The notes below the pieces were generated by a model. The model did no database searches. It was given only the letters and a program-made list of their open reading frames with translations, and was not told the origin of the DNA. 64,000 nucleotides of DNA from Candidatus Bathyarchaeota archaeon (GTDB lineage Archaea; Thermoproteota; Bathyarchaeia; Bathyarchaeales; Bathycorpusculaceae). The stretch lies in the NCBI GenBank assembly GCA_963769845.1, contig CAVYNL010000033.1:1-64000 (forward strand). The letters run 5' to 3'. The position numbers and the translations under genes were made by a program. Positions 6,679 through 63,161 of the stretch are shown here, one piece after another. Positions within the stretch are counted from its first letter, which is position 1. Every line of letters starts with the position of its first letter.

Positions 6679-6766
6679 CAGTGAAATCTCCTGTTGAATG
6701 GTTTGATTCAGAAGATTCACGGGAAAACGCTTTAATAACCTTATGCTCCTTTTTCACGTAAAAGTG

Positions 6767-7885
6767 ATGTTTGAGATGAATGCTCAAGAACTCACCCAGA
6801 AGCACAAGCTGCTTGAATGCATCCAGTGCGGAACATGCACCGGGAGCTGTCCAGTTGCACGCAAAGCCAACCTCAACGTCAGGAAGTACATGCGCGAAGT
6901 CGCAACACTGGGCAAGCTGACGCAACATTCGCAGAACGAGCTGTGGAGCTGCACAACCTGCAGCACCTGCGGCGTACGATGTCCGAAGGAGTTGAACCCG
7001 TACGAGTTTCTGATTGACGTTCGCGGTATGGCGGTTGAAGAAGGCCAGATCGCACCGACGATTCGTGATGCTTTGGAGAGCATTTTCAAGAACGGCAATC
7101 CATGGGGAAGGATCCGTAACAAGCGTTCAGAATGGATGCAAGGATTGAACGTGAAGCACATGTCACAAGGCGCAGACATGCTCTACTTTGTTGGTTGCAC
7201 GTCGGCTTATGACCCGCGAATTCAAAACGTGGCAAAAAACGTTGCAGCCGTTTTCGCTAAGGCAGGTTTGAACTTTGGCGTCTTGGGCGATGAGGAGAAC
7301 TGCTGTGGAAGCGAAGTCTACGGAATGGGAGAAAAAGGGCTCTTCGACTTCCTCGTCGAGGAGAACATGAAGGCTTTCAACAAGTACAACGTCAAGCAAG
7401 CGGTGACGAACTGTCCACACGGCTATCACGCGTTTAAGAACAGGTATAACCAGACGAGCTTCGAGGTCCAGCATCACTCGCAGCTGCTGTGCAAGCTCAT
7501 TGACGAAAAGAAGCTAACGTTCTGCAAAGAACTGAACAAGAAGGTCATTTATCATGACCCATGTTTCTTGGGGAAGCAGAACGGCATCTACGACGAGCCA
7601 CGGAAAGTGATCGAAAGCGTGCCAGGCGTGAAACTGCTAGAGTTCGACCGCTCACGGACAAGAAGCGTGTGCTGCGAAGGCGGCGGCGGAAGAATGTGGG
7701 TCGACATCCCAGGACCAAGACTGTCCGAGACACGCGTGAAAGATGCAGTAGAAGCTGGCGCAGACATCCTAGCTACAGCATGTCCTTACTGCCTGTTAAC
7801 ATTTGAAGACGCTGTCAAGACCACGGGAAACGAAGGCAAAATCCAAATCATGGACATAGCCGAACTCCTTGTGCAAGCACTTTAG
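6767..7885 (+). CDS. hdrD: HdrD-like protein: an HdrC-type 2x[4Fe-4S] domain fused to an HdrB-type duplicated CCG (Cys-rich) domain
   Basis: CIQCGTCTGSCP and CTTCSTCGVRCP match HdrC ferredoxin motifs. Two CCG motifs follow (VGCTSAYDP...ENCCGSE and DPCFLGKQ...CCEGGGG), as in HdrB/GlpC/SdhC. The gene is divergent from hdrA-mvhD with an intergenic gap of about 85 nt. Confidence 0.8.
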   Translation: MFEMNAQELTQKHKLLECIQCGTCTGSCPVARKANLNVRKYMREVATLGKLTQHSQNELWSCTTCSTCGVRCPKELNPYEFLIDVRGMAVEEGQIAPTIRDALESIFKNGNPWGRIRNKRSEWMQGLNVKHMSQGADMLYFVGCTSAYDPRIQNVAKNVAAVFAKAGLNFGVLGDEENCCGSEVYGMGEKGLFDFLVEENMKAFNKYNVKQAVTNCPHGYHAFKNRYNQTSFEVQHHSQLLCKLIDEKKLTFCKELNKKVIYHDPCFLGKQNGIYDEPRKVIESVPGVKLLEFDRSRTRSVCCEGGGGRMWVDIPGPRLSETRVKDAVEAGADILATACPYCLLTFEDAVKTTGNEGKIQIMDIAELLVQAL

Positions 7886-16340: not shown

Positions 16341-16545
16341 AAAGTGTGGTTGGATAGTCCATCCATATAAGCCTTTCTCACCACGGATACTGTAAACTCA
16401 TCTGTCATGACTTTTCCAGCTTACAGAATGTTAGTGGTGCATTTGTCAGTTTTGTTTTCTAATTGTGCCTTGGTTTTTCCCTTTGCTTCAGAATACGCAG
16501 AAAACCTGATTCAGATGTTGTCTTTATGGGTTCTTTGATTATTCC

Positions 16546-16555
16546 TTTGTTCTTA
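16546..16555. repeat. AGCGCGCGCT palindromic decamer, intergenic within the AT-rich islet
   Basis: Exact match. Confidence 0.9.
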
Positions 16556-16570
16556 GCGCGCGCTCGGATT

Positions 16571-17149: not shown

Positions 17150-17271
17150 TTTTGGTTATAAAGAGGGGTTTTTTGCTAGCGTGTGCGTTATGACAGATAA
17201 GTTTACAGTATCGCTGTTACGAATAGTTCATAAATGACTTCCTGAAAACTAGTGTTCCTGAGCTGTGTCAC

Positions 17272-18204
17272 ATGGAAAGTTATGAATTGATAATCATCGG
17301 CGCTGGTCCTGCTGGTTTGGCGGCTGGGATTTATGCCGTTAGAAGCGGGTTGAAAACGCTTGTTCTTGAGGAGAAGATGGCCGGCGGGACCGTGGCCGAT
17401 GCTCCAATGGTTGGGAACTATCCGGGTATTCAGGACGCAAAGGGCAGCGAGATTGCACAGAAGATCCACGCGCATGCAAAGAGCGCGGGCGTGAAGGTTA
17501 ACGAGTTTGAAAGTGTCGAGGGCCTGAAGCTTTCGGCGGATAGAAAAGTAGTGAAGACTCAGAAGACAGAGTACGAGGCCAAGACAATAATTATCGCGTC
17601 GGGTAGCCATTATCGTGAGCTGGGAATTCCAGGTGAGAAAGAGTTTCGCGGAAGGGGCGTGAGCTACTGCGGCATCTGTGACGGCCCGTTCTTCAAGGGC
17701 AAGCGTGTGCTCGTTGTGGGCGGCGGCAACTCGGCCTTGATGACAGCGCTCTATCTTGCACATCTTGCTGGAGAAACAAAGGTTGTGCACAGGAGAGAAA
17801 CGTTTCGGGCTGAGGAGGTGCTTGTCCAAGAACTGAAGAAGTTGAGAAACACGGAGGTTCTCTGGAGCACCGAAGTTAAAGAGATCGTAGGTGACAAGGT
17901 CGTCAAGAAAGTCGTCGTACTTGACAAGAAGGACAATAGAACGAGAGAGGTGCCGGTTGACGGCGTTTTCGTGCAGGTAGGCGAGTCGCCCAACAGTCAA
18001 TTAGCCAAAGAGGCGGGCGTGGCCGTTGACGAGGATGGCTATATTAAGATAGATTGGCTTCAGCACACGAACATCGCTGGCGTGTACGCCGCTGGAGACG
18101 TCACAAATCATCCGGTCAAGCAGGTGGGCACGGCTGTCGGGCAGGGCATAACTGCGGCCCTGGAGGCATACGGCTACATTCGAAGACCATATTACAAACA
18201 GTAG
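17272..18204 (+). CDS. trxB: thioredoxin-reductase-like FAD/NAD(P)-dependent pyridine nucleotide-disulfide oxidoreductase
   Basis: IIIGAGPAGLAAGIY (FAD GxGxxG), redox-active SYCGICDG, NAD(P) GxGxxA (VLVVGGGNSA), C-terminal YAAGD. Confidence 0.8.
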   Translation: MESYELIIIGAGPAGLAAGIYAVRSGLKTLVLEEKMAGGTVADAPMVGNYPGIQDAKGSEIAQKIHAHAKSAGVKVNEFESVEGLKLSADRKVVKTQKTEYEAKTIIIASGSHYRELGIPGEKEFRGRGVSYCGICDGPFFKGKRVLVVGGGNSALMTALYLAHLAGETKVVHRRETFRAEEVLVQELKKLRNTEVLWSTEVKEIVGDKVVKKVVVLDKKDNRTREVPVDGVFVQVGESPNSQLAKEAGVAVDEDGYIKIDWLQHTNIAGVYAAGDVTNHPVKQVGTAVGQGITAALEAYGYIRRPYYKQ

Positions 18205-18301
18205 AAAACATGCCAAAACCATTATATTTTCCCGAACCCACGAAGCAACGTCTAGAGTATCGTGTTCGCGCTTATCTACCAGCATTGGAGAAGTCTGGCG
18301 A

Positions 18302-19513
18302 ATGACTGAAAGTTGTGCAGCCGCAGTAACGATCAACCAGGACCTTTGCAGTAAGTGCTCCATTTGCCATTCAATCTGTCCCTACGAAGCCATCAAGCGG
18401 GACCAGGAAACTGGTAAAGTTGAGATTGACTTGCAGAAGTGCCAGGTCTGCGGCATATGCTACAGCGCCTGCCCGTCCATGGCGATCGAGATCAAGTATT
18501 ACGATTATGACAGCCTCGTGAAGCTCGTCAAGGAAATGCATGAGAAGTGCGACAGCGACACGCTCGTTCTGATGTGCAGGGGCAACTCGCCCTCAACCTG
18601 CGAGGTCCAAGAGATGCTGGAAAAGGAAGGCTTGAACGTCAAAGATTACATTCCGTTACGATTACCGTGCGCGGGACGGGTGCCCTCCGAGTTCGTGTTC
18701 AAGGTCCTGAAAGCGGGCATCAAAAGGGTCATCTCGATCCAGTGTGAGGACAAATACTGCAGGTATAAGGAAGGCACGAGGATTGGCAACAGGCGGATGA
18801 CGCTGGGCAGAGCCGTGCTGGAGCAGTTCGGCCTCAGCAAAGACGCGTTCAAGGTTGTGAGATACTCTCGGAAGGTCGTTTATGACACTTCCAAGTGCGT
18901 GGGCTGCGACAAGTGCGTTTTCATATGCCCGTACAAGGCGATCGAGGCTGAACCGTTTGCCACGCCCAACGTGCTTTTCGACGATTGCATGGGCTGCGGC
19001 GCATGCGCACTGGTCTGTCCGCACCAGGCGATCGAGGTCAAGGGCTTCGAGTTCGAAACCGTGCTCAAGCGCTACGGGGAAGCGGCGACGAAACTGAAGG
19101 CGCAGGGCAAAAGCCCAATCATCCTGGTTTTTGTATGTCAGTGGTCAGAGTTCTCGGCGTTGGACCAGCCTGAGAGGGAATTGCTGAAGAAGAACGCAGT
19201 GACCCTGGAGGTTCCATGTTTCAAGGCCCTCGACCCTGTACACGTGGTTAACGCGTTGCAGAGCGGTTTTGACGGGGTCATGGCCGTGGTGTGTGCGCCT
19301 GAGGATTGTAAGCTTCAGGAAGGCAAGGAGACGGCTGAAAGAAACGTTGCCGTTCTGAAGAACGTGTTGAAAAAGCTGGGGCTGCTGAACCGTTTCGAGC
19401 TCTTCTATGCTTCGCCGAGGTGCATGGGCGACTTCAACCAGAAGCTGGAGGAGTTTTACAGGAGAATTGCCGTGTTGCCATCGTTGAAGATGGAGGTGAA
19501 GGTGCGTGTATGA
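18302..19513 (+). CDS. duplicated module protein: [2x4Fe-4S ferredoxin + MvhD-like domain] x 2
   Basis: Two ferredoxin pairs (CSKCSICHSICP/CQVCGICYSACP and CVGCDKCVFICP/CMGCGACALVCP). Each is followed by an MvhD-like Cys pattern (LVLMCRGNSPSTC...LPCAGRV...IQCEDKYC and ILVFVCQWSEF...VPCFKAL...VVCAPEDC). Confidence 0.8.
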   Translation: MTESCAAAVTINQDLCSKCSICHSICPYEAIKRDQETGKVEIDLQKCQVCGICYSACPSMAIEIKYYDYDSLVKLVKEMHEKCDSDTLVLMCRGNSPSTCEVQEMLEKEGLNVKDYIPLRLPCAGRVPSEFVFKVLKAGIKRVISIQCEDKYCRYKEGTRIGNRRMTLGRAVLEQFGLSKDAFKVVRYSRKVVYDTSKCVGCDKCVFICPYKAIEAEPFATPNVLFDDCMGCGACALVCPHQAIEVKGFEFETVLKRYGEAATKLKAQGKSPIILVFVCQWSEFSALDQPERELLKKNAVTLEVPCFKALDPVHVVNALQSGFDGVMAVVCAPEDCKLQEGKETAERNVAVLKNVLKKLGLLNRFELFYASPRCMGDFNQKLEEFYRRIAVLPSLKMEVKVRV

Positions 19514-20345
19514 GATACTGAAGAAAAGAGAGCTTGCGCCCAAGATCAAGTGGTTTGAGGTCAGAGCGCCCGAGATGGCTGAAAAAGCAAAGCCCGGCCA
19601 GTTCATAATAGTGGTAATCGACGAGAAGGGCGAACGCGTGCCCTTGACGATAGCTGGCATCGACCCGAAGAAGGGCACCGTGAGCTTCGCGTTCAACGAG
19701 GTCGGCAAGACAACGAAGCAGCTCGGATGCATGAAAGAGGGTGACAGCATCTGGAACGTCACTGGACCGCTTGGTGTGCCGTCGGAAATCAAGAAATACG
19801 GCAAGGTCCTGTGCGTCGGCGGTGGCGTGATGATCGCGCCCATGCTGTTGCAGGTCAAGGCCCTTCGAGAGGCAGGCAACTCGGTTGTGAGTGTTGTGGG
19901 CGCGAGGATCAAGGAACTGCTGTTCTTCGAGGACGAGGTCAAGGCTTTGAGCGACGGCTTCTACGTGGCGACGGATGACGAGTCGAGAGGCTATAAGGGC
20001 TTAGACTTCCTGAAGGGCGTGCTTGAGAAGGAACGGTTTGACAGGTGCATCGTGTATGGGCCGGTTGTAATGATGAAGGATGTCTCGGAGATCACGCGAC
20101 CTTTCAGCATTCCGACGGTTGTGAACCTGACGCCGATCATGATTGATGGCATGGGAATGTGCGGCGTGTGCAGAGTTTCTGTGGGCGGCAAGATGAAGTT
20201 CGGTTGTGTGGACGGGCCAGAGTTCGACGGGCACAAGGTGAATTTTGACGAGCTGGTGAACAGGCAGAGGATGTTCCTGCCAGAGGAACGGTTGAGCTCG
20301 ATGCTGTGGGAGAGGCAAGGAGGATGCGGCTGTGGCGGAAAGTAA
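19506..20345 (+). CDS. nfnA: NfnA/SudB-like subunit (PyrK-type FAD + [2Fe-2S] electron-transfer subunit)
   Basis: FeS motif CGVCRVSVGGKMKFGCVDGPEFDG and NAD/FAD-binding region VLCVGGGVMIAPM. Its start overlaps the upstream gene by 8 nt. Confidence 0.8.
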   Translation: MYEILKKRELAPKIKWFEVRAPEMAEKAKPGQFIIVVIDEKGERVPLTIAGIDPKKGTVSFAFNEVGKTTKQLGCMKEGDSIWNVTGPLGVPSEIKKYGKVLCVGGGVMIAPMLLQVKALREAGNSVVSVVGARIKELLFFEDEVKALSDGFYVATDDESRGYKGLDFLKGVLEKERFDRCIVYGPVVMMKDVSEITRPFSIPTVVNLTPIMIDGMGMCGVCRVSVGGKMKFGCVDGPEFDGHKVNFDELVNRQRMFLPEERLSSMLWERQGGCGCGGK

Positions 20346-21747
20346 GCCGAAGCCTAAGCTGAAGAAAGAAGCCGTGCCGATGCCTAAGCAGGCACCGAAA
20401 GTGAGAAGAGAGAATTTTGAAGAGGTGGCCACGGGCTACACGGAACAGCAGGCACTCGAAGAAGCAAGCCGCTGCCTGCAGTGTCCGAAACCACAGTGCG
20501 TGACGGGATGCCCCGTGGGGATCTGCATTCCAGATTTCATCAAACTACTGCGAGAGGGAAAGTACGAGGAGGCCATTCAGAAGATCAAGGAAAAGAACGC
20601 GCTGCCAGCCGTCTGCGGAAGAGTGTGTCCGCAGGAAGAACAGTGCCAAAAAAAGTGCATTATGGGAAAAGTCGCTGAGCCAGTGAGCATAGGCAGGCTT
20701 GAACGATGGCTCGCAGACTGGGAAAGAGAAAAGGGGGTCAAAGCACCTGCCAAAACTACATCTACTGGAAAGAAAGTTGCCGTCATCGGCGCCGGTCCGG
20801 CTGGACTGACGGTCGCGGCTGAGCTCGCCAGGCTGGGGCACAAGGTAGTCATGTACGAGGCGCTACATCTGCCAGGCGGCGTGCTGATCTACGGCATCCC
20901 CGAGTTCCGTCTGCCCAAGAGCATCGTTCGGTCCGAGGTGGACTACGTTCAGAAACTGGGAGTCGACCTGAACTTGGGGTATCTGATAGGGAGGATACAC
21001 ACGATTCCCGAACTGCTCAAACAGCGCGGGTTCGACGCGGTTTTTATCGGGACAGGAGCGGGGTTACCGGCGTTCATGGGCTTGCCGGGAGAAGGCCTGG
21101 GAGGTGTCTATTCTGCCAGCGAGTTCTTGATCAGGGTCAACTTGATGAAGTCTTACGCGTTTCCAATCTATGATACGCCCATCAGGGTCGGAAGGCACGT
21201 TGTGGTCATAGGCGGCGGGAACGTGGCGATGGACTCTGCCCGGTCTGCACTGCGTCTGGGCGCTGAAGAAGTCTGTATTGTCTACAGGCGCTCCAGAGAG
21301 GAAATGCCCGCGAGGAAGGAGGAGATCGAGAACGCGGAGGAGGAGGGAATACTCTGCAAGTTCTTGGCCAACCCGACAAGGTTTGTTGGTGATGAGAAGG
21401 GCTGGGTGAAAGCAATGGAGTGCGTCTGCATGGAACTCGGACCACCAGACGAATCAGGCCGAAGGAGACCTGCACCCGTCAAAGGATCAGAGTTCGTGAT
21501 GGACACAGACACGGTGATAGTCGCTGTTGGAAGAAGCCCCAACCCAATAATACAAAGCACCACAGAAGGACTAGCGGTGACAAAGTGGGGAACCATAATG
21601 GCAGATGACAACGGCAAGACGAACATCGAAGGAGTCTACGCTGGCGGAGACATAGTAACGGGTGAAGCCACCGTCATAAGCGCCATGGGCGCAGGCAAAA
21701 AAGCAGCAAAAGCAATACATGAATACTTGATGACCTGCAAATCCTAG
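20332..21747 (+). CDS. nfnB: NfnB/SudA/GltD-like subunit (NAD(P)H:ferredoxin oxidoreductase large subunit, 2x[4Fe-4S] + FAD + NAD(P))
   Basis: CLQCPKPQCVTGCPVGICIP and CGRVCPQEEQCQKKC, then VAVIGAGPAGL...VVVIGGGNVAMD...GVYAGGD. 471 aa. Overlaps nfnA by 14 nt. Confidence 0.85.
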   Translation: MAESKPKPKLKKEAVPMPKQAPKVRRENFEEVATGYTEQQALEEASRCLQCPKPQCVTGCPVGICIPDFIKLLREGKYEEAIQKIKEKNALPAVCGRVCPQEEQCQKKCIMGKVAEPVSIGRLERWLADWEREKGVKAPAKTTSTGKKVAVIGAGPAGLTVAAELARLGHKVVMYEALHLPGGVLIYGIPEFRLPKSIVRSEVDYVQKLGVDLNLGYLIGRIHTIPELLKQRGFDAVFIGTGAGLPAFMGLPGEGLGGVYSASEFLIRVNLMKSYAFPIYDTPIRVGRHVVVIGGGNVAMDSARSALRLGAEEVCIVYRRSREEMPARKEEIENAEEEGILCKFLANPTRFVGDEKGWVKAMECVCMELGPPDESGRRRPAPVKGSEFVMDTDTVIVAVGRSPNPIIQSTTEGLAVTKWGTIMADDNGKTNIEGVYAGGDIVTGEATVISAMGAGKKAAKAIHEYLMTCKS

Positions 21748-25446: not shown

Positions 25447-25983
25447 CTACAGTTTCTTCCCGAACTCGTATCCTTTCTCAAAAGCAGCCAGGTTCAATTC
25501 CTCAGTGCCCTTGGGAATGTTCTCCTTGATTGCTTCCTTCATCGCATCAGTATCCAGCAAACGCGTGATCGCGACGAAACCGCCCAGCATTACAATGTTC
25601 GCAACGATACGCCTGCCAAGCTGCTCCGCGATCTTCGTGGCCGGAACCTTGTACACCTTCACACCCTTCAACCCCTTCTCCGACGGAATCATATCAGGGT
25701 CCATGATCACTGTCCCGCCCGCCTTCACGTCGCCCGTGTAGTCATTGTACGCGTGTTGACTCATCACCACGAGCACGTCGGGCTCAACAACCTTCGGAAA
25801 ATCGATGTCCTCCTCAGAAATCACGACCTCAGACTTGCACGCTCCGCCCCTGGACTCAGGCCCGTAAGATTGCGTCTGCACAGCGTTCTTCCCGCCGTGG
25901 ATGCAAGCCGCTGAGGCCACGATGATGCCAGATTTGATGATGCCCTGACCGCCGAAACCCGCAAACCTAATCTCAACACGCAT
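25447..25983 (-). CDS. korG: 2-oxoacid:ferredoxin oxidoreductase gamma subunit
   Basis: MRVEIRFAGFGGQGIIKSGIIVASAA...PESRGGA is a Por/Kor gamma signature. Confidence 0.85.
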   Translation of the reverse strand: MRVEIRFAGFGGQGIIKSGIIVASAACIHGGKNAVQTQSYGPESRGGACKSEVVISEEDIDFPKVVEPDVLVVMSQHAYNDYTGDVKAGGTVIMDPDMIPSEKGLKGVKVYKVPATKIAEQLGRRIVANIVMLGGFVAITRLLDTDAMKEAIKENIPKGTEELNLAAFEKGYEFGKKL

Positions 25984-25985
25984 GT

Positions 25986-26834
25986 CTATTGCACCTTCTC
26001 CATAGCTTTCTCGTTAATCTTCGAGATCTTCTCATGCAATAACTTCTCGTAACTTAGCTTTTCAATGTCCACAAACTCGCCCACCGCAATCCTGTCCTGC
26101 GAAATGTCCGCCTTAGCCGGGTCAGAAAAATTCTCAACAACTGAAGCCCGCTTGAACCAGTCCATCATCTCCAGCCCAGAGCGCATCTTGTTCTGCCTGC
26201 CGAAAATCTCCGGACACGGCGACAGCACCTCCACGAAGCAGAACCCCTCCTTCTGCAACAGTTTCTTGATAGACTGCGTCAGCCTACGCACATGCAGAGT
26301 CGTCCACCTCGCCACATAAGTCGAGCCTGAAGCAGCAGCCAGATGCACGAGGTTAAACGGATGCTCCACATTCCCATAAGGGCTCGTCGCAGTAATCGAA
26401 TCCAAAGGCGTCGTCGGTCCCTGCTGCCCACCGGTCATGCCATAATTCAAATTGTTAACGCAGATCACCTTCACGCCGATGTTCCTCCGCGCCGCATGGA
26501 TGAAGTGGTTGCCACCGATGGCGAACAGGTCACCGTCACCACTGACAACGACGACCTCCAACTCGGGGTTCGCGAGCTTCACGCCTGTGGCGAACGCTAA
26601 TGCCCGTCCGTGCGTCGTGTGGAAAGAATCAGCGTACGTGTACCCAGCCGTGCGTCCGATGCAGCCGATTCCCGAGACTATCACAAGCTTGTCCAGGTCA
26701 GTCTTCAACTCGTCCAAAGCATGGACGAAACAGTTCAAGACAATGCCGTTACCGCAGCCTGCACACCAGATGTGCGGCATCATCTCCGCTCGAAGATACT
26801 TCGCAAACGGATGAACCAATTCTTGCACCATCAA
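25986..26834 (-). CDS. korB: 2-oxoacid:ferredoxin oxidoreductase beta subunit (TPP-binding)
   Basis: WCAGCGNG...GIGC...SGDGD is a TPP-binding beta subunit motif. Confidence 0.9.
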   Translation of the reverse strand: MMVQELVHPFAKYLRAEMMPHIWCAGCGNGIVLNCFVHALDELKTDLDKLVIVSGIGCIGRTAGYTYADSFHTTHGRALAFATGVKLANPELEVVVVSGDGDLFAIGGNHFIHAARRNIGVKVICVNNLNYGMTGGQQGPTTPLDSITATSPYGNVEHPFNLVHLAAASGSTYVARWTTLHVRRLTQSIKKLLQKEGFCFVEVLSPCPEIFGRQNKMRSGLEMMDWFKRASVVENFSDPAKADISQDRIAVGEFVDIEKLSYEKLLHEKISKINEKAMEKVQ

Positions 26835-27991
26835 CTACTCCTCCTGATAGACTCCAATATTTCCAGAGGCGTGTGCGGCTCCTCCCCAAGCTTCCCCAGA
26901 AAAGAGACAGGAGTCTCCTTAGCTGCCCGCTCAACCTCACGAACAAGCTGCCCACAATTCATCTCTGGAACAACAATCTTCTCCGCCTGTTGCGCAACCT
27001 TGGCCACTTGCTTCTCGGGGAAAGGCCACAAAGTGATAAGCCGCAACAGTCCAGCCTTGATGCCCTTCTCCCGCGCTTTTCGAACTGCGCTTAACGCGGC
27101 GCGTGCAACGATGCCGTAGGCGACAACAACCACGTCCGCATCGTCCAGCATCACTTCTTCTACCCTGATTATCTTGTCAGCGTTCTTGCCTATCTTTTCG
27201 CACAGCCTTCGAACCAGCCTCTGCTGTACTTCGGTGCTCGAAGTCTTCGGAAAACCATGCTCATCATGCGTCAGACCCGTCGCGTGAAAACGATACCCCT
27301 CACCGAAACAGGCCATCGGCGGAACCAAGTCAGCATCAGGCAGGAACGGCTCATACTCCTCACGCGGCACGTTCGGCTTCTTTCGATTCAAGGTCCTGAT
27401 CTTGTCCCCGGCTGGAATCGTCACCTTCTCCCACATGTGCCCCACAATCTCATCCGCCATCAACAACGTCGGCACACGATAAGTCTCAGCCAAGTTGAAT
27501 GCCTCAACAGTCAGATTGAACATTTCCTGCACAGAACTGGGCGTCAAAGCGATGATCCCATAATCCCCATGCGAACCCCACTTCGCCTGCATGACATCCT
27601 GCTGCCCCGGCATAGTCGGCTGACCCGTACTCGGACCGCCACGCATAACATCCACAACCACACACGGCGCTTCAGTCATTACTGCCAAACCGATGTTCTC
27701 CTGCATAAGACTGAAACCCGGACCCGACGTGGCCGTCATGGCTTTCAAACCACTGTAGGAAGCACCTATGACGGCGGCCATCGACGCAATTTCGTCCTCC
27801 ATCTGAATGTATATCCCGCCGATCTCCGGCATCCTCAGCGACAAATGTTCAGCAATCTCTGTAGCTGGCGTAATCGGGTAACCAGCGAAGAACCTGCAAC
27901 CAGCCGCCAAGGCGCCTTCCGCGCAGGCAACGTCACCGTTCATGAAATGCGGGCCGCTCAAAGCGTTCCTAGTCTTAGTCATGTTTACCAC
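26831..27991 (-). CDS. korA: 2-oxoacid:ferredoxin oxidoreductase alpha subunit
   Basis: GDVACAEGALAAGCRFFAGYPITPATEI...SGPGFSLMQE is a Por/Kor alpha signature. Overlaps korB by 4 nt (ATGA). Confidence 0.9.
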   Translation of the reverse strand: MVNMTKTRNALSGPHFMNGDVACAEGALAAGCRFFAGYPITPATEIAEHLSLRMPEIGGIYIQMEDEIASMAAVIGASYSGLKAMTATSGPGFSLMQENIGLAVMTEAPCVVVDVMRGGPSTGQPTMPGQQDVMQAKWGSHGDYGIIALTPSSVQEMFNLTVEAFNLAETYRVPTLLMADEIVGHMWEKVTIPAGDKIRTLNRKKPNVPREEYEPFLPDADLVPPMACFGEGYRFHATGLTHDEHGFPKTSSTEVQQRLVRRLCEKIGKNADKIIRVEEVMLDDADVVVVAYGIVARAALSAVRKAREKGIKAGLLRLITLWPFPEKQVAKVAQQAEKIVVPEMNCGQLVREVERAAKETPVSFLGKLGEEPHTPLEILESIRRSS

Positions 27992-28280
27992 CCTTCACTT
28001 CCACTTTCTCAACACCCTGAGGTTTCTCAACCACATAAATCGCGAAATCAGGACAGACCGCCGTGCAGAAGCCGCACATGATGCAATCCTCCTCATGCGC
28101 GACTCTTGGAGGATGAACACCCCTAGCGTTGATCTCGTCCGACTCCTCCAGCACCTTCTTCGGACAAAACTCGATACAGTACCCGCAGCCCTTGCACTCG
28201 TCCTTAATTAGATGAACCTCGCCCCTAGAGGCTTTGACCTTGTCCTTATCCAAGGGCGCATGCTTAATCCGTTCAGGCAT
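27975..28280 (-). CDS. korD: 2-oxoacid:ferredoxin oxidoreductase delta subunit (2x[4Fe-4S] ferredoxin)
   Basis: CKGCGYCIEFCP and CIMCGFCTAVCP. 101 aa. Overlaps the korA start. Confidence 0.85.
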   Translation of the reverse strand: MPERIKHAPLDKDKVKASRGEVHLIKDECKGCGYCIEFCPKKVLEESDEINARGVHPPRVAHEEDCIMCGFCTAVCPDFAIYVVEKPQGVEKVEVKGGKHD

Positions 28281-28283
28281 ATC

Positions 28284-30796
28284 CTAGACCACTCCTAAAG
28301 ACTTCTCAAAAACCTTCTTAGACTTCTCAATCTCTTCATGTGAAACCTTGTCAATGATAGGCTTCATCTCATGAACCTTCGACGCCACACGTTCGCCTTC
28401 GGCGGCTGAAGCCCACAACAACTGCAACCGTTCTTTGCTCAAGCCGCTCGTCTCCATCTTCTTCCACAACCGTTCCACACGCTTCTGCGTCTGGTAATTC
28501 GCGTTAATATAGTGACAATCGCCAAGATGACAGCCTGCCACCAGAACGGCTCCAGCGCCCCTTGCGAAAGCGCGCTCAACCATTCTCGGCGACACGCGCC
28601 CGCTGCACATCGTCCTGATAATGCGCACGTTCGGCGGATACTGCATCCTGCTGACACCCGCAAAATCCGCGCCTGCGTAGCTGCACCAGTTACAGCAGAA
28701 AGCCACGATCTTCTTCTCCGGCTTCTCCTCCGTCACCGCATCAATCTGCGCATTAATCTGGTCATCAGTAAAATGCTTCTGCGTCAACGCACCGAAAGCA
28801 CACTCAGCCGCACAAGTCCCACAGCCGCCACAAGCAGCCTCAATAATCTCCACGCGCTTCTTGTCCTTATCCAGCGTGATCGCGTTGTAAGGACAAACTT
28901 TCACGCAGAGGCCGCAGGCCTTACACTTGTCCGGGAAAGTGATCGGCGTAATAGCTTCAACGGTGACTTTGCCCTGCGCCATCAATATGCCCGCGCGAGC
29001 CGCAGCAGCGCTCGCCTGCGTAACACTGTCCTTGATGTCCTTGGGACCTTCCGCGCAGCCAGCGAAGAACACTCCGCCCGTCGCGGCGTCCACGGGCCTC
29101 AGCTTCGGATGAGCTTCAAGGAAGAACCCGTCCTGATTCCTTGAGAGCGTCAGCAACCGCTGGATCACTTCACTGTCCTTCCGCGCCTCCAGGCCTATGC
29201 TTAGTATAGCCATCTCCACGTTGACTTTGTACCGTTCTTTCTGCAGCGTGTTCTCGCCGACAAGCCACAGGTTGTGTGTCTTCCGGTCCTCAAAAATCTC
29301 CGCTGGCAAGCCCCTGATGAACTTGACACCCGCCTTTCGAGCACGCTTGTACAGGTCCTCAAAGCCCTTGCCAAAAGCCCGGATGTCCACGTAGAAAACG
29401 TAGATCTCCGTCTCAGGCCAGTGCTCCTTGATGAGCAGACTGTCCTTGATCGTGTTCATACAACAAACGTTGCTACAGTACAGCTTTCCGTTCCTGTCCG
29501 ACCGCGAGCCAACGCACTGGACAAACGCTACGTTCTTCGGGATCTGCTTGTCACTCGGCCTCAGCAAGTGGCCGCCTGAAGGCCCACCCGCGTTGATCAG
29601 CCTCTCAAACTCAAGCGACGTGATCACGTTCGGATACTTGCCATAACCGTAATATGGCAAGCCAGAAGGGTCAAAAACGTCCGCACCCGTCGCCACAATG
29701 ACGGTGCCGACCTCAAGCTCAACGGTCTCGGGCTTCATCTCGAAGCTTATCGCCTGACGCTCGCAAGCTTTTATGCACTTGTCACACACGATGATGCCGT
29801 TCTTGTTGAGGCACATACTCATGTCGATGATGTAAGTGGAAGGAACGGCCTGCGCAAACGGTGTATAAATCCCATGCCTCGTCGCGAGACCGACGTCAAA
29901 CTCGTTCGGGGCCAAGAATCGGACAGACCTTCGCACATTCGCCACACGCCGAACAGTCCTTGGCAACGTACCGCGGCTTCTTCAGCACCTTCACGTGGAA
30001 GTTTCCAATGTAACCCTTAACCTCACTTACCTCGCTGTTCGTCAACAGTTCAATGTTCGGATGGTGCCCCGCATCGGACATTTTCGGCGCCAAGAATGCA
30101 GATGGAACAGTCCATTGTCGGAAACGTCTTATCAATCCTTGCCATCATCCCGCCGATGCTCGGCTCCTTCTCCACCAGGTACACTTTGTAGCCAGTGTCC
30201 GCAAGGTCCAGGGCTGCCTGAATCCCAGCGACGCCACCGCCGATGACCAGCGCTCGTCGCGTGATCGGCATCTCAGCTTCCACAGCAGGCTCAAGCAATG
30301 CCGACTTGGCAACGGCCATCTTAACAAGGTCCTTCGCCTTCTCTGTGGCCGCTTCTCGGTCATACAAGTGAACCCAACTGCAATGCTCGCGGATGTTGGC
30401 CATCTCGAACAAGTACTTGTTCAACCCAGCCTCCTCGCACGCCTTGCGGAACGTGGGTTCATGAAGACGAGGAGAACACGAAGCCACGACCACACGGTTG
30501 AGCTTGTGCTCTTTGATGTCATTCTTAATTCCAGCCTGACCCTGGTCAGAACACGTGTAACGATTATCCTGGGCCAAAACCACGCCGGGCAGCTTCGCCG
30601 CAAACTTGGCAACTTCCGCACAATCAACAGAACCCGCGATGTTCAGGCCGCAATGACACACATAAACGCCGATACGCACATCGTCTTTCGGCTTAGCCTC
30701 AGCCGCCTTCTTCTCCGCCAACTCACCGCGCCCCCTCGGACTCCAAATAACATTCAATGGACTCAGCCGCTCGCTTCCCGTCGCGAATCGCTTCAA
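28284..30796 (-). pseudogene. hdrA: second HdrA-MvhD fusion gene, split into three ORF fragments by two frameshifts within about 150 nt (30135-29896)
   Basis: The fragments 30050..30796, 29896..30135 and 28284..29966 align in order to the intact copy at 4315-6678 (DCSICILG / [13 protein letters not shown]...CSACGECAKVCP / ...MvhD C-terminus VAFCCNWCSYAGAD...). The first shift lies inside GCCGAAAATGTCC, an A4 run. Sequencing error is possible. Confidence 0.7.
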
Positions 30797-32147
30797 TCAC
30801 CGAAGCCGGCCCCAACACCGCGTCGCCACCCGCGAAAACCCCTGGCAGGCTCGTCTCCAACGTGACAGGGTTAACCCAAACTGTCCCGTCCTCATTCAAC
30901 TCAACATCCTTCGGCAAAAATCCAAGGTCAGGAGCCTCACCGATTGCCAGAATCACCATATCCGCATCACGACTAAACTCCGAACCCTCAACCGGAAACG
31001 CCTTCTTCCGCCCCGACTCATCAGGCTCGCCCAACTGCATACGCAAACACTCAACGCCCGTGACCTTTCCTTTCTCGCCGAGGATCCGCTTAGGCGAAAC
31101 CAAAAACTCGAGTTTCACGCCCTCGTTCTCCGCCTCCTTCACTTCCCACAAGTTCGCAGGCATCTCCTCATCCGAACGCCTGTAAATTATCGTCACATCC
31201 TCCGCGCCCATGTATTTCGCGGTCCTCGCCGCATCAACAGCCACGTTTCCGCCGCCCACGACGACGACATGCTTCCCAACACTCATCTTCTTGCCAAAGT
31301 TGGAATCCCACAAAAAGTCCAAGGCATGAACCACACCGTCCAAGTCGGCACCCTCGACCCGCAAATGCTGACTCCTATGCGCGCCCACGCTGACGAATAT
31401 GCTCTTGTAGCCCTCCTTCCACAAGTCCTCAAAACCTACGTCCTTGCCCACTGTCGTACCCGTCTTGGCTTCCACGCCCAAGTCCATTATGTACTTCGTT
31501 TCCTTGGCCAACAAGCGCTTGGGCAGCCTATTCTCAGGGATGCCCTTGCGCAACATGCCACCAAGCTCGGGCAACGCTTCAAAAACCGTGACCGAATACC
31601 CTTTCCTGCCCAGCTCATACGCGGCGCTCAAACCGGCAGGACCTGAACCGATGATCGCTATTTTTCCAGAAGATTTCTCGCCCTTCCGCGGTTTGTGCAT
31701 CTCTTCCCTGATCTCTTCAATTCGTTTCAGGACTTTCTCGTTCTCTAAGCCCGCCCTTTCAGGGTGGAAACAGACGAGCGTGGTCACGAGCGGGAGTGGA
31801 ATATTCTTCACGATCTTCTGCAACGCTTTGTCGAAGGATTTGCTTCCGCGTTCTTTAGCAACTTTTCGCATTTCGAGAAAGATCTCGGGAATTTTCAAAG
31901 CCTGCGGACAACGCTTCTGGCAACCGTAGCACCAAGCGCACAGCCAAACTTCATCAGAATCCAAGACAGCTTCGGGCTCGCAGGCAATTCGCTCCAGCAG
32001 GTTCCGCGGGTTGTAGTCTGCGCCTAGCATCTCCGCCATGGAGCAGCTGGCCGTGCATATGCCGCATTCGAAGCAGTACTTGAGTTTTTCAGTGTCCAGA
32101 ATCCTGTTGAGAACTTCCTTGGAAACCGCGGTCGCCGAGCTTGCCAA
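30723..32147 (-). CDS. fusion protein: N-terminal HdrC-like 2x[4Fe-4S] domain plus a GltD/NfnB-like FAD/NAD(P)H oxidoreductase domain
   Basis: [11 protein letters not shown]...[12 protein letters not shown], then [11 protein letters not shown]...[12 protein letters not shown]...FAGGDAV. 474 aa. Its 3' end overlaps the hdrA-mvhD start region. Confidence 0.8.
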
Positions 32148-32297
32148 TTTTTTGGGCCCTCCCTTTTATTGGCGAAGCCCAACATATAAAAGTTTACAAA
32201 CGTAAAGGTTTTTCATGGACATCCGACCTCACAGGAGAACCAAACACCCTTTTAAACCCGAAAAGACAGAAGAGACCAACACAAGAGGCAGACGCGA

Positions 32298-33861: not shown

Positions 33862-34490
33862 CAAAATTACGTTGACACGAAAGAACACTCGACTATATAG
33901 AATCAGTAGCCATGCGTACACTATTTGGAGAACCAACATAAGCTAAGGGTGCAACATTTTCTGTCGGTGACTCAAATGGAAAAAGCCAGACCAAAAAGAA
34001 CCAAAAAGAGAAGCATCCCCACCGAACCATGGTACTTCACCCACATATGAGAGAACCAACTTGGCAGACAGCCAGAACGTGATCAGCTTGAAGAAGAGAA
34101 GAAAGCAATCGAAAAAAACTGAACAAAGGACGAATGCGGACACAATCGACTGACGTCTAGCCATCGACTTCATCCCAATCTAGCGAATTTCTAATAAGAA
34201 AACCAGGATTTTTCTGTTCAAGGGTATGGTCAATCTTCGCAACGACAGACATTCGCCCAATTGTGTCAGCACGAACCTACCTAGAAGAAAAAAAGAAAGG
34301 ATTTCGGCGCATGTTGTGTACGTAATCACCAGGGGAATTATGTGAGCGCGGACTCGCGAGGATTTTCGAGGAAAACATATGGCAGATCGTGGGTCTTCAG
34401 CCCACGGTGAGATCGAGTCTTCTTTGACGAAACGTTTAAACCCACAGGCTAAACCTCGAAGGAGCTACCGACAATATATGAGGGACAGAA

Positions 34491-35423
34491 TTGAGCAGCA
34501 ATGTTGCTATTGACGTGGAGAGGCTCACGAAACGTTACGGAGATTTGACCGCTGTCAACGGTATTTCTTTCACGGTTAATAAGGGCGAGATCTTTGCTTT
34601 TTTAGGACCCAACGGTGCGGGCAAGACCACGACCGTAGAGATGCTGGAGTGTTTGCGCAAGCCCACGAGCGGAAAGGCCTACGTGCTTGGCTGTGACATT
34701 TCGAAAGACAAAGACGACATAAAGAAAAGAACAGGTGTCCTGCCGCAGGACTTTGCTACCTACGAGAGACTTACGGTTAGGGAAACAATCCAGTATTTCG
34801 CTGGGATGTTCAATAGCCACCCGGATGTCGATGGCCTGATCAAAATGGTTGACTTGGAAGACAAGAAAAACGCACTGTTCAAGCATCTGTCAGGCGGACT
34901 GAAGCAGCGACTCGGAATAGCCGTTGCCCTAGTTAACGATCCCGAACTTATTTTCTTGGACGAGCCCACAGCTGGACTGGACCCGAAAGCACGTCACGTT
35001 GTCTGGCACCTTATCGAAGAATTTCATAAACAAGGAAAAACCGTGTTCTTGACAACCCATTACATGGAAGAAGCAGAAGTGCTCGCCGACCGAGTGGGCA
35101 TAATCTACAACGGCAACATTGTCGCACTGGACACCACGGACAGACTTATTTCTGAACACGGCAAGAAGAACCTATTAATTCTGAAGAAAACAAGTCCCAA
35201 GGCAGTTCCAACGATCGAAGAACTCGGGATAAAAGCAAACTTTGACGGCGGAAGCGGTGACGTCACGGTTCACCTGAACCATGCCGTCGCAGTCTCCGAA
35301 ATCCTGCACAAGCTGGGCAGTGCGAACATACCATTTCAAGAACTGCAGCTGAAACGTTCAAGCCTCGAAGACGTCTTTCTGAACCTTACTGGAGCGCAGC
35401 TAGAGGAGGGCGACAAAATATGA
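34491..35423 (+). CDS. ABC transporter ATP-binding protein
   Basis: Walker A GPNGAGKTT, ABC signature LSGGLKQR, Walker B IFLDEPTAGLD. Confidence 0.85.
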   Translation: MSSNVAIDVERLTKRYGDLTAVNGISFTVNKGEIFAFLGPNGAGKTTTVEMLECLRKPTSGKAYVLGCDISKDKDDIKKRTGVLPQDFATYERLTVRETIQYFAGMFNSHPDVDGLIKMVDLEDKKNALFKHLSGGLKQRLGIAVALVNDPELIFLDEPTAGLDPKARHVVWHLIEEFHKQGKTVFLTTHYMEEAEVLADRVGIIYNGNIVALDTTDRLISEHGKKNLLILKKTSPKAVPTIEELGIKANFDGGSGDVTVHLNHAVAVSEILHKLGSANIPFQELQLKRSSLEDVFLNLTGAQLEEGDKI

Positions 35424-36535
35424 GCCACGTGGTTCTCGACCTTAAAGCCAGCATCAAAACCTTCTTCCGCAACAAAAGCGCCATCTTCTGGACCATCGCA
35501 TTTCCCTGCGTTCTAATACTACTATTCGGAGCCATTTTCAGTCAATCATCAATGAAATACGACCTCTACCTGCAAAATCAGGACCAAACCAACAGCAAAG
35601 CAACATACTGGTCCAGCACAATCATAAACGTCCTGAACTCCACAAACGCATTCAACCTACAAGTAATAGACTCATCAATCAACGCGACGGACTATGCAAT
35701 AGCAAACAGACTGAGCAGCCTGATCGTCATCCCGTCAGGGTTCAACGATACCGCGAACACAGCGCTTTTAAGCCACGGCAGCACTACCGCGAACGTGACT
35801 TTTGTCTATGACCAATCCACGTCCTCCGCGCCCATCGTTCGAAGCATCGTAATGAGCATCATCGACAGGTTCAACTTTCAACTTTCGAATGGCGTGCAGT
35901 ATATGAGCATTGAAGATTTGACCATAGCACCGAAGCGCTTCGGCTACATCGACTTCTTCCTGCCAGGCATGATCGGAATGACGGCAATGACCACAAGCGT
36001 TTTCACGGCCGTTTCACTGAGCGCCCGGTTCAAAGAAAACGGCGTCTTCCACAAATTGGCAACCACGCCGCTGAAGCGCTACGAGTGGATACTGTCCAGA
36101 ACAATCTACAACGTCCTCATATCCTTCCTTGGCATGGCAGTCATGATGGTACTAGGCTTGACAATATTCAACATGAAAATGACAGTTGACGCCGTGTCGC
36201 TTCTCATGGTGGCAATGGCCTCGCTAATGTTCACGGGCATTGGAATGATCATCGCAAGATTCGTCAAAGACCCAGACGGAGCAGACGCAGCAGCAAACGT
36301 CATAACCTTCCCGATGATGTTCCTCTCAGGCACATTCTTCCCACTAAGCCAAATGCCCCAATTCCTCCAAACAATCGCCCAAGTGCTCCCGCTGACCTAC
36401 GTAAACGAAGGACTCAGAGCCACCTTGATCTTCGGCCAACCACAACAGGCAATCTTGAACACGGCAATAATAACGGTTCTAGGATTACTATCCATCGCCG
36501 TAGGCTCATGGATAACCAAATGGGAAGAGGACTAA
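35420..36535 (+). CDS. ABC-2 family transporter permease
   Basis: An N-terminal TM segment, a large extracytoplasmic loop, then a 5-TM bundle. Overlaps the upstream ATPase gene by 4 nt. Confidence 0.75.
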   Translation: MSHVVLDLKASIKTFFRNKSAIFWTIAFPCVLILLFGAIFSQSSMKYDLYLQNQDQTNSKATYWSSTIINVLNSTNAFNLQVIDSSINATDYAIANRLSSLIVIPSGFNDTANTALLSHGSTTANVTFVYDQSTSSAPIVRSIVMSIIDRFNFQLSNGVQYMSIEDLTIAPKRFGYIDFFLPGMIGMTAMTTSVFTAVSLSARFKENGVFHKLATTPLKRYEWILSRTIYNVLISFLGMAVMMVLGLTIFNMKMTVDAVSLLMVAMASLMFTGIGMIIARFVKDPDGADAAANVITFPMMFLSGTFFPLSQMPQFLQTIAQVLPLTYVNEGLRATLIFGQPQQAILNTAIITVLGLLSIAVGSWITKWEED

Positions 36536-61967: not shown

Positions 61968-62188
61968 ACACGAACCCGCGCGTTTCGATTTGTCACAATT
62001 GCAGGTCTTCCCAACATTACTGGCACGCGCTGGAGAAGCAAAATACTCCAGACTTTTGATGACTATTCTGCGCGCCTTTCAATGATGTCGGACGCGCACA
62101 CTCAGATTTCCAAGATTTAAATACCGTCGTGTCCCCATGTCTGACTTGACGTGTGTTGACTGGTCGATCCTGACTGGAGGTTCCTGAT

Positions 62189-63161
62189 ATGGAAATGACG
62201 AAGATTCTGATTTCTTTCGATTTGCCCGAGATTTATGTTGAGAAGATCAGGGATGTTTCGCCTGAAGTTGAAGTCGTGCAGAGTGAGGACAAAGAAGAAG
62301 CTCTGGACCTCGCCAAGGATGTGGATTGTCTGTTTGCTGGTTTCTTCTCGAAAGAACTGTTCCAAGCTGCCAAGAAACTGAAGTGGATCCAATCTTTTGG
62401 CGCGGGTGTTGAGAGGATTCTCATTCCAGAAGTAGTAAACAGCAGGGTGATTGTGACGAACGCTGGAGGCGTCCATCCAACGCCCATCTCGGAACACGTC
62501 ATCGGCATGATGCTCTGCTTCACTCGAGGATTGCACGTCTTCATCAGAAATCAGACGGAGAAGAAGTGGGAACGGCCCGAAACATGGACCTCGCCAATGA
62601 TCGATGAATTGTCAGGCAAAACCTTAGGAATAGTAGGACTGGGCAAGATCGGAACGGAGATAGCCAGAGAAAGCAAAGTGCCTGGGAATGAGAGTGATCG
62701 CCACAAAAAGAGACCCGACCAGTCCAGCATCGACCAATGTTGACAGGCTCATCGCCCCCGCTGATTTGAACCAGTTGCTCGCCGAGTCTGACTTCGCCGT
62801 TCTCTCTTTGCCCCTAACTAAGGAAACAGAAGGAATGATCGGAGAAAGGCAGTTGAAAAGCATGAAACCCACGGGTATACTCATCAACGTGAGCAGAGGA
62901 AAAATCATTCAAGAAAACAAACTCGTTCAAGCCCTCAAACAAGGATGGATCGCCGGCGCAGGCTTGGACACTTTTGAAAACGAACCCCTACCAGAAAACA
63001 GCGAACTCTGGAACTTCAAGAACGTCATAATCACCCCCCACATCGCTGGGGACACACCACACTACCCCGAACGATTAACAAACATATTCACGGAAAACCT
63101 GAACCGATTCATCCACAAACAACCCCTAATCAACGTCGTAGACAAGAACCTCGGGTACTAA
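62189..63161 (+). pseudogene. D-isomer-specific 2-hydroxyacid dehydrogenase carrying a frameshift near 62680-62695 (at AGAGAAAGCAAAG)
   Basis: N-terminal substrate domain followed by GKTLGIVGLGKIGTEIA (NAD GxGxxG). The C-terminal half continues in another frame (...ALGMRVIATKRD...ITPHIAGDT). The two track ORFs overlap at a homopolymer-rich site. Confidence 0.6.

Follow-up and report, generated by a model that had tools for sequence, protein, structure and literature searches.

Two NAD(P)+-linked 2-oxoacid:ferredoxin oxidoreductases (OFORs) are the phenylglyoxylate:NAD+ oxidoreductase PadEFGHI and the Azoarcus 2-oxoglutarate:NADP+ oxidoreductase KorABC. Flavoproteins of the HdrA family that are joined to a GltD/NfnB-like domain have, moreover, been described as genomic predictions, namely (i) HdrL, an HdrA/glutamate-synthase fusion that occurs with MvhD in Desulfobacterium autotrophicum (PMC2702500), (ii) HdrA-NfnB fusions in ANME-1 (PMC9012536), and (iii) in ANME-1 and Bathyarchaeota, a "type III" HdrA into which a GltD/NfnB domain is inserted (PMC12054007). 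In WorABCSL, the oxidation of a -520 mV donor needs both NAD+ and ferredoxin, which its authors regard as a way to sustain oxidation against a reduced ferredoxin pool (PMC12318220), and the same logic has been predicted for Por-Bfu, a bifurcating pyruvate:ferredoxin oxidoreductase (POR) (PMC9304861). Here, we analyzed a 64,000-nucleotide stretch of DNA from Candidatus Bathyarchaeota archaeon (positions 1 to 64,000 of contig CAVYNL010000033.1, assembly GCA_963769845.1; hereafter, the window) that carries a six-gene operon, comprising a gene for an HdrC-type::NfnB-like flavoprotein (gene 1), an hdrA::mvhD fusion gene (gene 2), and the OFOR genes korD, korA, korB, and korG (genes 3 to 6). We propose, at a probability of roughly 0.4, that the product of this operon may be an enzyme of the HdrA family that couples the oxidation of a 2-oxoacid to the joint reduction of NAD(P)+ and ferredoxin.

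The six genes lie consecutively on the minus strand at positions 25447-32147 of the window and are transcribed from 32147 towards 25447, as stated in the initial annotation and confirmed by open reading frame (ORF) calls. Its further statement that all junctions are 4 nt or less holds for four of them, namely gene 1/hdrA (a 1-nt gap, with hdrA starting at TTG 30721), hdrA/korD (a 3-nt gap), korA/korB (an ATGA overlap), and korB/korG (a 2-nt gap), whereas korD and korA overlap by 8 nt or 17 nt, depending on whether korA starts at ATG 27982 or at GTG 27991. The corresponding medians over 52-70 related loci are +4, +2, -9, -4, and +1 nt. On the minus strand between 25100 and 32300, the TATA-like box TTTATATG upstream of gene 1 is the only match to TTTAWATR, and the block TTTGTAAACTTTTATATGTTGG around it is conserved in two related loci (L001 and L002); this box is likely the single archaeal promoter of the six-gene operon. 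A simple TATA and oligo-T search found neither an internal TATA consensus nor a T run of 6 or more within the operon, either of which might have marked a boundary between korDABG and the two upstream genes, and a simple oligo-T search found no clear terminator downstream of korG. Rfam and tRNA scans of the window returned no matches. The stop/start overlaps had also been taken to indicate both co-translation and a physical complex; of these, translational coupling stands, as overlaps of the ATGA type show that genes are transcribed together and coupled in translation but not that their products assemble.

The domain assignments proposed for all six proteins were upheld by Pfam, NCBIfam, and Protein Data Bank (PDB) searches. 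KorA matches the Pfam families POR_N (246 bits) and PFOR_II (91.5 bits) as well as NCBIfam NF006412 (591 bits; cutoff 411), and its closest solved chain is the alpha subunit of a Pyrococcus 2-keto acid:ferredoxin oxidoreductase (1yd7_A, 460 bits), followed by 2-oxoglutarate synthases. KorB matches its thiamine pyrophosphate (TPP)-binding family at 115 bits and contains, in translation, WCAGCGNG and SGIGC motifs with the cysteines of an intramolecular [4Fe-4S] cluster; its best NCBIfam match, the beta subunit of 2-oxoglutarate:ferredoxin oxidoreductase, scores 268 bits, which is below the cutoff of 364. KorG matches POR (135.8 bits) and NCBIfam NF006323 (250 bits; cutoff 235), and a protein identical to it is encoded on eight other public contigs. 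KorD has two CX2CX2CX3CP motifs, and its best NCBIfam match, OGOR_delta (67 bits), lies below the cutoff of 125. The families whose cutoffs are exceeded by KorA and KorG are those of generic 2-oxoacid:acceptor oxidoreductases. By these matches, KorDABG is classed as a four-subunit 2-oxoacid:ferredoxin oxidoreductase of a KGOR-like clade.

The NADH-dependent phenylglyoxylate dehydrogenase (Pad) families are among the NCBIfam relatives of KorA, KorB, and KorG. The view that Kor/Por enzymes donate electrons only to ferredoxin, from which the initial annotation set out, is therefore incomplete, as Pad is NADH-dependent according to NCBIfam and Por-Bfu is a predicted further case (PMC9304861). With respect to the substrate, the two closest long relatives, L001 (15833-17023) and L014 (13159-14349), have behind korG, in the same orientation, an aminotransferase gene (Aminotran_1_2) that is found neither in the window nor in L002; this neighbor hints that the OFOR acts on amino-acid-derived 2-oxoacids.

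The HdrA::MvhD protein, with two extra bases removed from its gene (see below), shares 97-98% identity with uninterrupted 811-aa proteins of other metagenomes (P0001-P0005) and matches NCBIfam HdrA2 (NF040770) with 1267 bits, above the cutoff of 1100. Its residues 14-662 align end to end with HdrA of M. wolfeii (5odc_A, 823 bits), with conservation of the FAD motif and of all [4Fe-4S] cysteine motifs, and residues 668-784 align with MvhD of the same structure (5odc_D), with retention of the [2Fe-2S] cysteine residues; the MvhD domain is also homologous to 7bkb_F. No gene for an HdrB/CCG-domain protein is present in the operon, either here or in 71 related loci. Because this defining subunit is absent, no heterodisulfide chemistry is expected, and heterodisulfide reductase would be the wrong class for the operon. 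The NCBI naming rule that yields "CoB-CoM heterodisulfide reductase HdrA2" is probably misleading where an operon is without HdrB.

In the gene 1 product, two CX2CX2CX3C motifs (residues ~25-80) mark the N-terminal domain, and the C-terminal part is most similar to the large subunit of Nfn (NADPH-binding), to Nfn-ABC/Stn, and to GltD. In Pfam, it matches Fer4_8/Fer4_17 and Pyr_redox_2. Its N-terminus has no Fer4_20 match in the Pfam and NCBIfam searches and matches Fer4_8/17 and HdrC instead: residues 23-103 match NCBIfam HdrC (TIGR03290) with 70 bits, no NCBIfam family being matched above its cutoff, and in the PDB search residues 20-104 match HdrC (5odc_C) with 62 bits and residues 153-471 match NfnI-L (5jca_L) with 263 bits. 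The cysteines are invariant in a 12-sequence alignment, and a 100% identical protein (P0121) is present in a public collection. An AlphaFold2 model of the protein (predicted local distance difference test score [pLDDT], 81.7; predicted template modeling score [pTM], 0.83) likewise has 5jca_L as its best Foldseek match, with a template modeling (TM) score of 0.71 over 436/474 columns, including the N-terminal di-cluster domain. Because the model superposes on NfnI-L over this length, the NfnL architecture applies to the protein as a whole, its HdrC-type character being confined to the sequence of the di-cluster domain; the description as a plain fusion of HdrC and GltD was dropped. The FAD motif reads GSGPAG, and the second Rossmann motif reads GGGNVA (GXGXXA) and is followed by YRR. 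As a GXGXXA motif with following arginines is the usual rule for NADP(H) preference (PMC12054007), the sequence suggests NADP(H) as the cofactor of gene 1.

The co-occurrence of korDABG, hdrA-mvhD, and a gltD-like gene, which the initial annotation had put forward as a check, was found in 71 species-level loci by a conservation scan that used an alignment of gene 1 as the query and one genome per GTDB species. These loci comprise 68 from Bathyarchaeia, two from complete Atabeyarchaeia (Asgard) genomes, and one from a contig labelled Acidiferrales, which is probably mis-binned. Every locus that is long enough has the order flavoprotein, HdrA::MvhD, KorD, KorA, KorB, KorG, with a partial exception in L079, where korABG and a korD of their own lie on the opposite strand and a KorD-like gene remains behind HdrA. 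Among the six proteins, HdrA is the best conserved (75-93% identity), and the flavoprotein ranges from 50 to 82%. Both Atabeyarchaeia genomes (L050, CP147779, and L085, CP147780) carry the whole six-gene operon at 10001-16700, with identities to the window of 83-84% for HdrA and 79-82% for KorA; because these values fall within the Bathyarchaeia range, lateral transfer is suggested. A second, divergent korABG set lies immediately downstream on the other strand in both genomes. Transcription of kor has been reported from a wetland data set on Atabeyarchaeia (PMC11291895). Further complete genomes with the operon are CP070683, CP070640, CP070649, CP070835, and OY970176.

A wider search among 50%-identity cluster representatives found the two-domain architecture of the flavoprotein at 40-58% identity. 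On a Bacteroidales-like contig with flanking TonB-receptor genes (L089, 5171-11816; also L090), the same six genes occur in a rearranged order, namely korDABG, flavoprotein, HdrA::MvhD, and the HdrA is 70-77% identical. The hdrA gene of L089 and L090 has a frame change at about residue 170, in the FAD-binding GXGXXG region, that is common to both records, which are probably from the same sample. Because the linkage survives rearrangement and crosses domains, the OFOR and the HdrA module appear to work jointly, and the functional tie between them that had been proposed from the window alone gains strong support from both the order conserved in the 71 loci and its rearranged counterpart in a bacterium. 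As judged from these comparisons, the conserved core is the pair of HdrC-type::NfnB-like flavoprotein and HdrA::MvhD, without HdrB; linkage of this pair to an OFOR is recurrent (three phyla and two gene orders), not universal.

In the enzyme that we propose, electrons (~-500 mV) from TPP-dependent oxidative decarboxylation would pass through KorD to the MvhD/HdrA clusters and on to the HdrA flavin, which would split them between two branches. One branch would run via the HdrC-type clusters and the NfnB-like FAD to NAD(P)+, and the other via the ferredoxin-like domains of HdrA to free ferredoxin (Fd). By homology, the HdrC-type clusters would dock where HdrC does, feeding, instead of HdrB, the NfnB-like FAD, between which and NAD(P)(H) a hydride would be exchanged. 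The net reaction would be 2 RCOCOO- + 2 CoA + NAD(P)+ + 2 Fd(ox) -> 2 RCO-CoA + 2 CO2 + NAD(P)H + 2 Fd(red). Since the reduction of NAD(P)+ is exergonic, it would sustain the oxidation of 2-oxoacids even against a highly reduced ferredoxin pool, and both reductants would thereby be supplied for Wood-Ljungdahl or fermentative metabolism. We infer the physical complex, the electron path, the bifurcation, and the nucleotide specificity from sequence. The variant in which bifurcation drives the reductive carboxylation of acyl-CoA, which the initial annotation had offered alongside oxidation, would find in the operon neither a high-potential acceptor nor a mid-potential donor.

Several observations weigh against this proposal. 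First, the hdrA reading frame is broken in this assembly. Second, on thermodynamic grounds, a donor at -500 mV can pass electrons to both NAD(P)+ and ferredoxin even without bifurcation. Third, the pair of flavoprotein and HdrA::MvhD occurs in L092 with an unrelated OFOR ~3 kb downstream and in L093 with no OFOR in the 8 kb downstream, so that the pair can function without a dedicated OFOR. Fourth, distant homologs of the flavoprotein (42-44% identity; e.g., L094, 3661-9133, and L096, 2714-5458) stand beside an aldehyde:ferredoxin oxidoreductase (AOR), Fer4_11, and polyferredoxins in L094 and L095 and beside GcvH in L096 and L097, in each case with no HdrA in view. Because these contexts vary (AOR, GcvH, HdrA), the flavoprotein may be a reusable NAD(P)H "plug" for low-potential oxidoreductases.

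The independence of the pair in L092 and L093 makes a serious rival of a model with two separate co-transcribed enzymes, which we consider somewhat less likely than our proposal. In this model, an ordinary KorDABG and an independent, soluble HdrL-like, possibly Nfn-like, ferredoxin:NAD(P)+ oxidoreductase/transhydrogenase would be coupled by free ferredoxin, reduced by the former and re-oxidized by the latter, and the shared operon would mirror this metabolic tie and not a physical complex. KorD is indeed a normal delta subunit, KorA and KorG exceed the cutoffs of generic OFOR families, and the NfnL architecture extends over the whole flavoprotein; a plain ferredoxin:NAD(P)+ reductase, however, would need neither the full HdrA cofactor set nor the MvhD adaptor. 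In favor of the model, modules of HdrL and MvhD in Desulfobacterium autotrophicum have been predicted to be NADH-linked units that contain no OFOR (PMC2702500). Against it stand an unchanging gene order with overlapping junctions in ~70 species, the recurrence of the linkage after rearrangement in the bacterium, and L079, whose KorD-like gene stays with HdrA/MvhD even though korABG is on the other strand.

Improbable, in our view, is an HdrA complex with three partners, of which the third (a group 3c Mvh hydrogenase, Fdh, or an FrhB-like protein) would be encoded elsewhere and dock on MvhD. Electrons from H2 or formate (~-420 mV) would then be bifurcated to NAD(P)+ (-320 mV) and, via KorD, to acyl-CoA carboxylation (-500 mV) or, in reverse, a 2-oxoacid and NAD(P)H would be confurcated to H2 or formate. 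The potentials balance, as -414 mV lies midway between -320 and -500 mV (values in PMC9304861), and MvhD is the adaptor for a mid-potential donor in the solved Mvh-Hdr and Fdh-Hdr complexes, to whose chains (5odc_D and 7bkb_F) the domain here is homologous. On the other hand, MvhD is fused to HdrA and korD follows directly, which suggests KorD as the partner of MvhD. Group 3c hydrogenases of unclear role are frequent in Bathyarchaeota (PMC9534799), and a GltD-inserted HdrA stands beside mvhADG in Bathyarchaeota (PMC12054007), whereas no hydrogenase, Fdh, or FrhB gene was found in the operon of the 71 loci, the flanks of which were not searched, or among the window ORFs scanned; the latter result agrees with the earlier statement that the window holds no hydrogenase.

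The broken hdrA frame raises a further alternative, which we consider very unlikely. In this organism, hdrA may have become a true pseudogene only very recently, and the operon would then have ceased to provide the HdrA module; less likely still, the gene is recoded and read by quadruplet decoding or +1 frameshifting at CUU-G. The initial annotation had presented hdrA-mvhD as one ORF, but it is divided here among three ORFs by two +1 frameshifts. Site 1 falls in the conserved motif DCSICILAPKM, where relatives read ATT-CTG-GCG, ATC-TTG-GCG, or ATT-TTG-GCG, and site 2 falls in CP-I-L/V-APNEFD, where the closest relative, L013, reads ATT-CTG-GCT and others read ATT-GTG-GCC. In both, a Leu/Val codon that relatives read as CTG, TTG, or GTG has turned into CTTG inside a shared 15-mer, ATTCTTGGCSCCGAA. 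The two insertions are 178 nt apart, neither lies within a homopolymer run, and the 15-mer has no third copy in the window even with two mismatches, all of which fits a genuine origin; two or more 15-mer matches occurred in 4/100 shuffles of the window. That both breaks fall in one 15-mer is worth noting; it also fits a context-specific consensus or basecalling error, which is likely.

The comparison with relatives points to errors. L013, at 95.3% nucleotide identity to the window, has an intact hdrA without the extra bases, which are therefore not conserved recoding sites. Between it and the window, 93 codons differ synonymously and 20 nonsynonymously, with a ratio of 59:12 for the part downstream of the breaks; by these counts, purifying selection on hdrA is not relaxed. 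Further, among the related loci retrieved that cover the gene in full, hdrA is undivided in all but L040 and L062 (MFD-labelled metagenome-assembled genomes) and L065, in which the breaks lie elsewhere in the gene. The earlier concern about a pseudogene without a conserved arrangement is thus answered by a gene order that is conserved in relatives and an hdrA that is intact in nearly all of them. At site 1, the string ATTCTTGG is the exact union of the synonymous haplotypes ATTCTGG and ATCTTGG found in relatives, and a mixed-strain consensus error would yield exactly such a string.

Additional 1-nt insertions break unrelated conserved genes of the window. At ~33011, a DapB_N/DAP_DH_C-like gene, which is intact in relatives (344 aa), reads GCAAGCAACGAACG, compared with GCAAGCAA-GGACA in L001, L014, and L002, and at ~62.7 kb a 2-Hacid_dh gene is split by an apparent extra base in the purine run AGAGAAAG, the fourth frame-breaking insertion of the window. 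Because relatives are intact, selection has been kept, and at least two further 1-nt insertions are present, the two hdrA frameshifts most probably arose as errors of assembly. A conserved mechanism at CUU-G, whether programmed +1 frameshifting or quadruplet decoding, was ruled out, as the extra base occurs in no relative. Selenocysteine as the cause of the split gene was dismissed, as the pieces lie in three frames and are separated by 1-nt insertions, not by an in-frame TGA.

Table 1. Positions, strands, and properties of the operon genes and of further features of the window.
Feature	Position	Strand	Details
Gene 1, 474-aa flavoprotein	30723..32147	-	TTG start; HdrC-type 2x[4Fe-4S] + NfnB/NfnL/GltD-like FAD + NAD(P)H domain
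Gene 2, hdrA::mvhD fusion	28284..30721	-	811 aa after removal of two extra bases; two +1 frameshifts in assembly
Gene 3, korD, delta subunit	27975..28280	-	101 aa; 2x[4Fe-4S] motifs CKGCGYCIEFCP and CIMCGFCTAVCP; Pfam Fer4_7/Fer4
Gene 4, korA, alpha subunit	26831..27991	-	383 aa from ATG 27982; 386 aa from GTG 27991
Gene 5, korB, TPP-binding beta subunit	25986..26834	-	281 aa from ATG 26831; Pfam TPP_enzyme_C
Gene 6, korG, gamma subunit	25447..25983	-	178 aa; Pfam POR
TATA-like box TTTATATG	32183..32190	-	Upstream of gene 1; read from sequence
hdrA fragments, three ORFs in three frames	30050..30796, 29896..30135, 28284..29966	-	ORF calls
Frameshift site 1, 15-mer ATTCTTGGCGCCGAA	30083..30097	-	Extra base in Leu codon "CTTG" 30094-30091
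Frameshift site 2, 15-mer ATTCTTGGCCCCGAA	29905..29919	-	Extra base in "CTTG" 29916-29913
DapB_N/DAP_DH_C-like gene	32298-33336	+	Divergently transcribed; split into two ORFs by 1-nt insertion at ~33011
D-2-hydroxyacid dehydrogenase, two overlapping ORFs	62174..62743, 62664..63161	+	2-Hacid_dh_C profile divided at positions 54-56
Second HdrA::MvhD-like paralog	4318..6753	-	812 aa; 39% identical to operon HdrA; below HdrA2 cutoff
HdrC + 2xCCG (HdrCB/TfrB/HdrD-like) gene	6707..7882	+	392 aa; Fer4_8 + 2xCCG; divergent from 4318..6753
Four-gene cluster	17227..21747	+	Thioredoxin-reductase homolog, FlpD-2xFer4-FlpD, NfnS-like, canonical NfnL/GltD-like

Beyond the operon, the window contains a second HdrA::MvhD-like paralog, which has lost cysteine residues from its MvhD-like part, and, divergent from it, the window's single gene for a CCG protein. 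The earlier statement, according to which an HdrBC partner is missing from the window, was thus incorrect as worded, although this HdrCB-like gene adjoins, and goes with, the other HdrA paralog and not the operon; positions 4318-7882 represent a candidate HdrA2-HdrCB unit that is separate from the operon. The four-gene cluster at 17227-21747, which is conserved in L002 and L003, includes a thioredoxin reductase scoring above the cutoff of TIGR01292 and, at 19500..21747, an NfnS-like (DHODB_Fe-S_bind) and NfnL-like (Fer4_20 + Pyr_redox_2) pair, and may represent a module of the Nfn type with a link to thioredoxin reduction. Within 32 kb, the genome thus encodes no fewer than three redox modules of the HdrA/MvhD/Nfn type. 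Compared with L001, L002, and L014, the window has ~2.7 kb extra between the MoaE-like and PhoU-like genes (33943-36535), with an ABC-transporter ATPase (34491..35423), an ABC-2 permease (35420..36535), and two small minus-strand ORFs. At the edge of the window, positions 22-909 of the minus strand encode an integrase-core (rve) protein with helix-turn-helix domains, probably a transposase or an insertion sequence element.

Bathyarchaeia are among the most abundant archaea of anoxic sediments and soils and are almost uncultured. The route by which they re-oxidize ferredoxin after peptide/2-oxoacid fermentation and their redox-carrier balance have been stated to be unclear (PMC9534799). A conserved operon that couples an OFOR with an HdrA module equipped to bind NAD(P)H, and that occurs in every species sampled, is an obvious candidate for this missing redox link. 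If the encoded enzyme does bifurcate, HdrA-type bifurcation would be extended to a reaction without heterodisulfide and without hydrogenase, and a second independent family, besides Bfu, would force a -500 mV donor to reduce NAD(P)+ and ferredoxin jointly. The broadest form of the proposal, namely that the operon gives rise to the first bifurcating or confurcating 2-oxoacid oxidoreductase of the HdrA family, a single complex with an NfnB-like NAD(P)H module in place of HdrB and an OFOR in place of the hydrogenase, present in essentially all Bathyarchaeia, shared laterally with Asgard archaea and Bacteroidota, and serving as a central ferredoxin/NAD(P)H hub, is a slightly bolder bet than the coupled reaction itself and should be taken as tentative.

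All parts of the operon come from known families (OFOR, HdrA2, and NfnL-like). In full-text literature, not covering the HdrA review of Appel et al. (2021), we found no account of an OFOR-HdrA-NfnB-like operon or of its biochemistry, in line with the earlier remark that this architecture had not been characterized biochemically; we did not find the invariant combination of korDABG with HdrA::MvhD and the HdrC::NfnB-like flavoprotein described. WorABCSL and Por-Bfu, in which a low-potential module (an aldehyde oxidoreductase or a four-subunit POR) is wired to the reduction of NAD+ and ferredoxin, resemble the operon in functional logic only. Their core is BfuBC (NuoF/NuoE-like, with FMN), which is unrelated to HdrA/NfnB, and a Pfam search of the six proteins found no BfuBC-type domain; since this core is absent, the operon does not encode a Bfu enzyme.

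PadEFGHI, KorABC, and the Chloroflexota locus L091 share with the operon the combination of an OFOR with a GltD- or FNR-like NAD(P) flavoprotein, and electron transfer from an OFOR to a pyridine nucleotide is accordingly not new. Unlike the operon, these systems are without HdrA/MvhD and are not thought to bifurcate; in L091, korABG occurs with a small ferredoxin and a GltD-like protein that has the canonical Fer4_20 domain, and no HdrA is present. The 13.6-kb contig of L091 (JBHOUY010000027.1) is a near-perfect mirror, with the order B12-binding, MTTB, korABG, GltD-like, ferredoxin, and then the same inverted, explained by either a large duplication in inverted orientation or a hairpin-type artefact of assembly.

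The NfnSL/NfnAB transhydrogenase is similar in the FAD and NAD(P)H domains of gene 1, which are NfnL-like (263 bits), and in the fold match over 436/474 columns. In the operon, however, the N-terminus is HdrC-type, not Fer4_20, and the partner is HdrA::MvhD, with no gene for NfnS/NfnA (DHODB_Fe-S_bind); because NfnS and Fer4_20 are missing, the operon does not represent NfnSL. HdrABC-MvhAGD (5ODC) and HdrA2B2C2 of M. acetivorans are similar in HdrA itself, which matches end to end with its FAD and Fe-S cysteine motifs kept, and in the HdrC-type di-cluster domain; in HdrA2 of M. acetivorans, MvhD is fused to HdrA, as here. Compared with these two systems, the operon is without HdrB/CCG, carries its HdrC-type domain on an NfnB-like flavoprotein, has no hydrogenase nearby, and includes an OFOR. 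Finally, HdrL and type III HdrA, which are biochemically uncharacterized, combine, as the operon does, HdrA with a GltD/NfnB-like NAD(P)H domain and MvhD. We found no report that links them to korDABG, which is invariably co-operonic here, and, in contrast to both, the GltD-like domain of the operon resides on a separate HdrC-type polypeptide, whereas MvhD is fused to HdrA.

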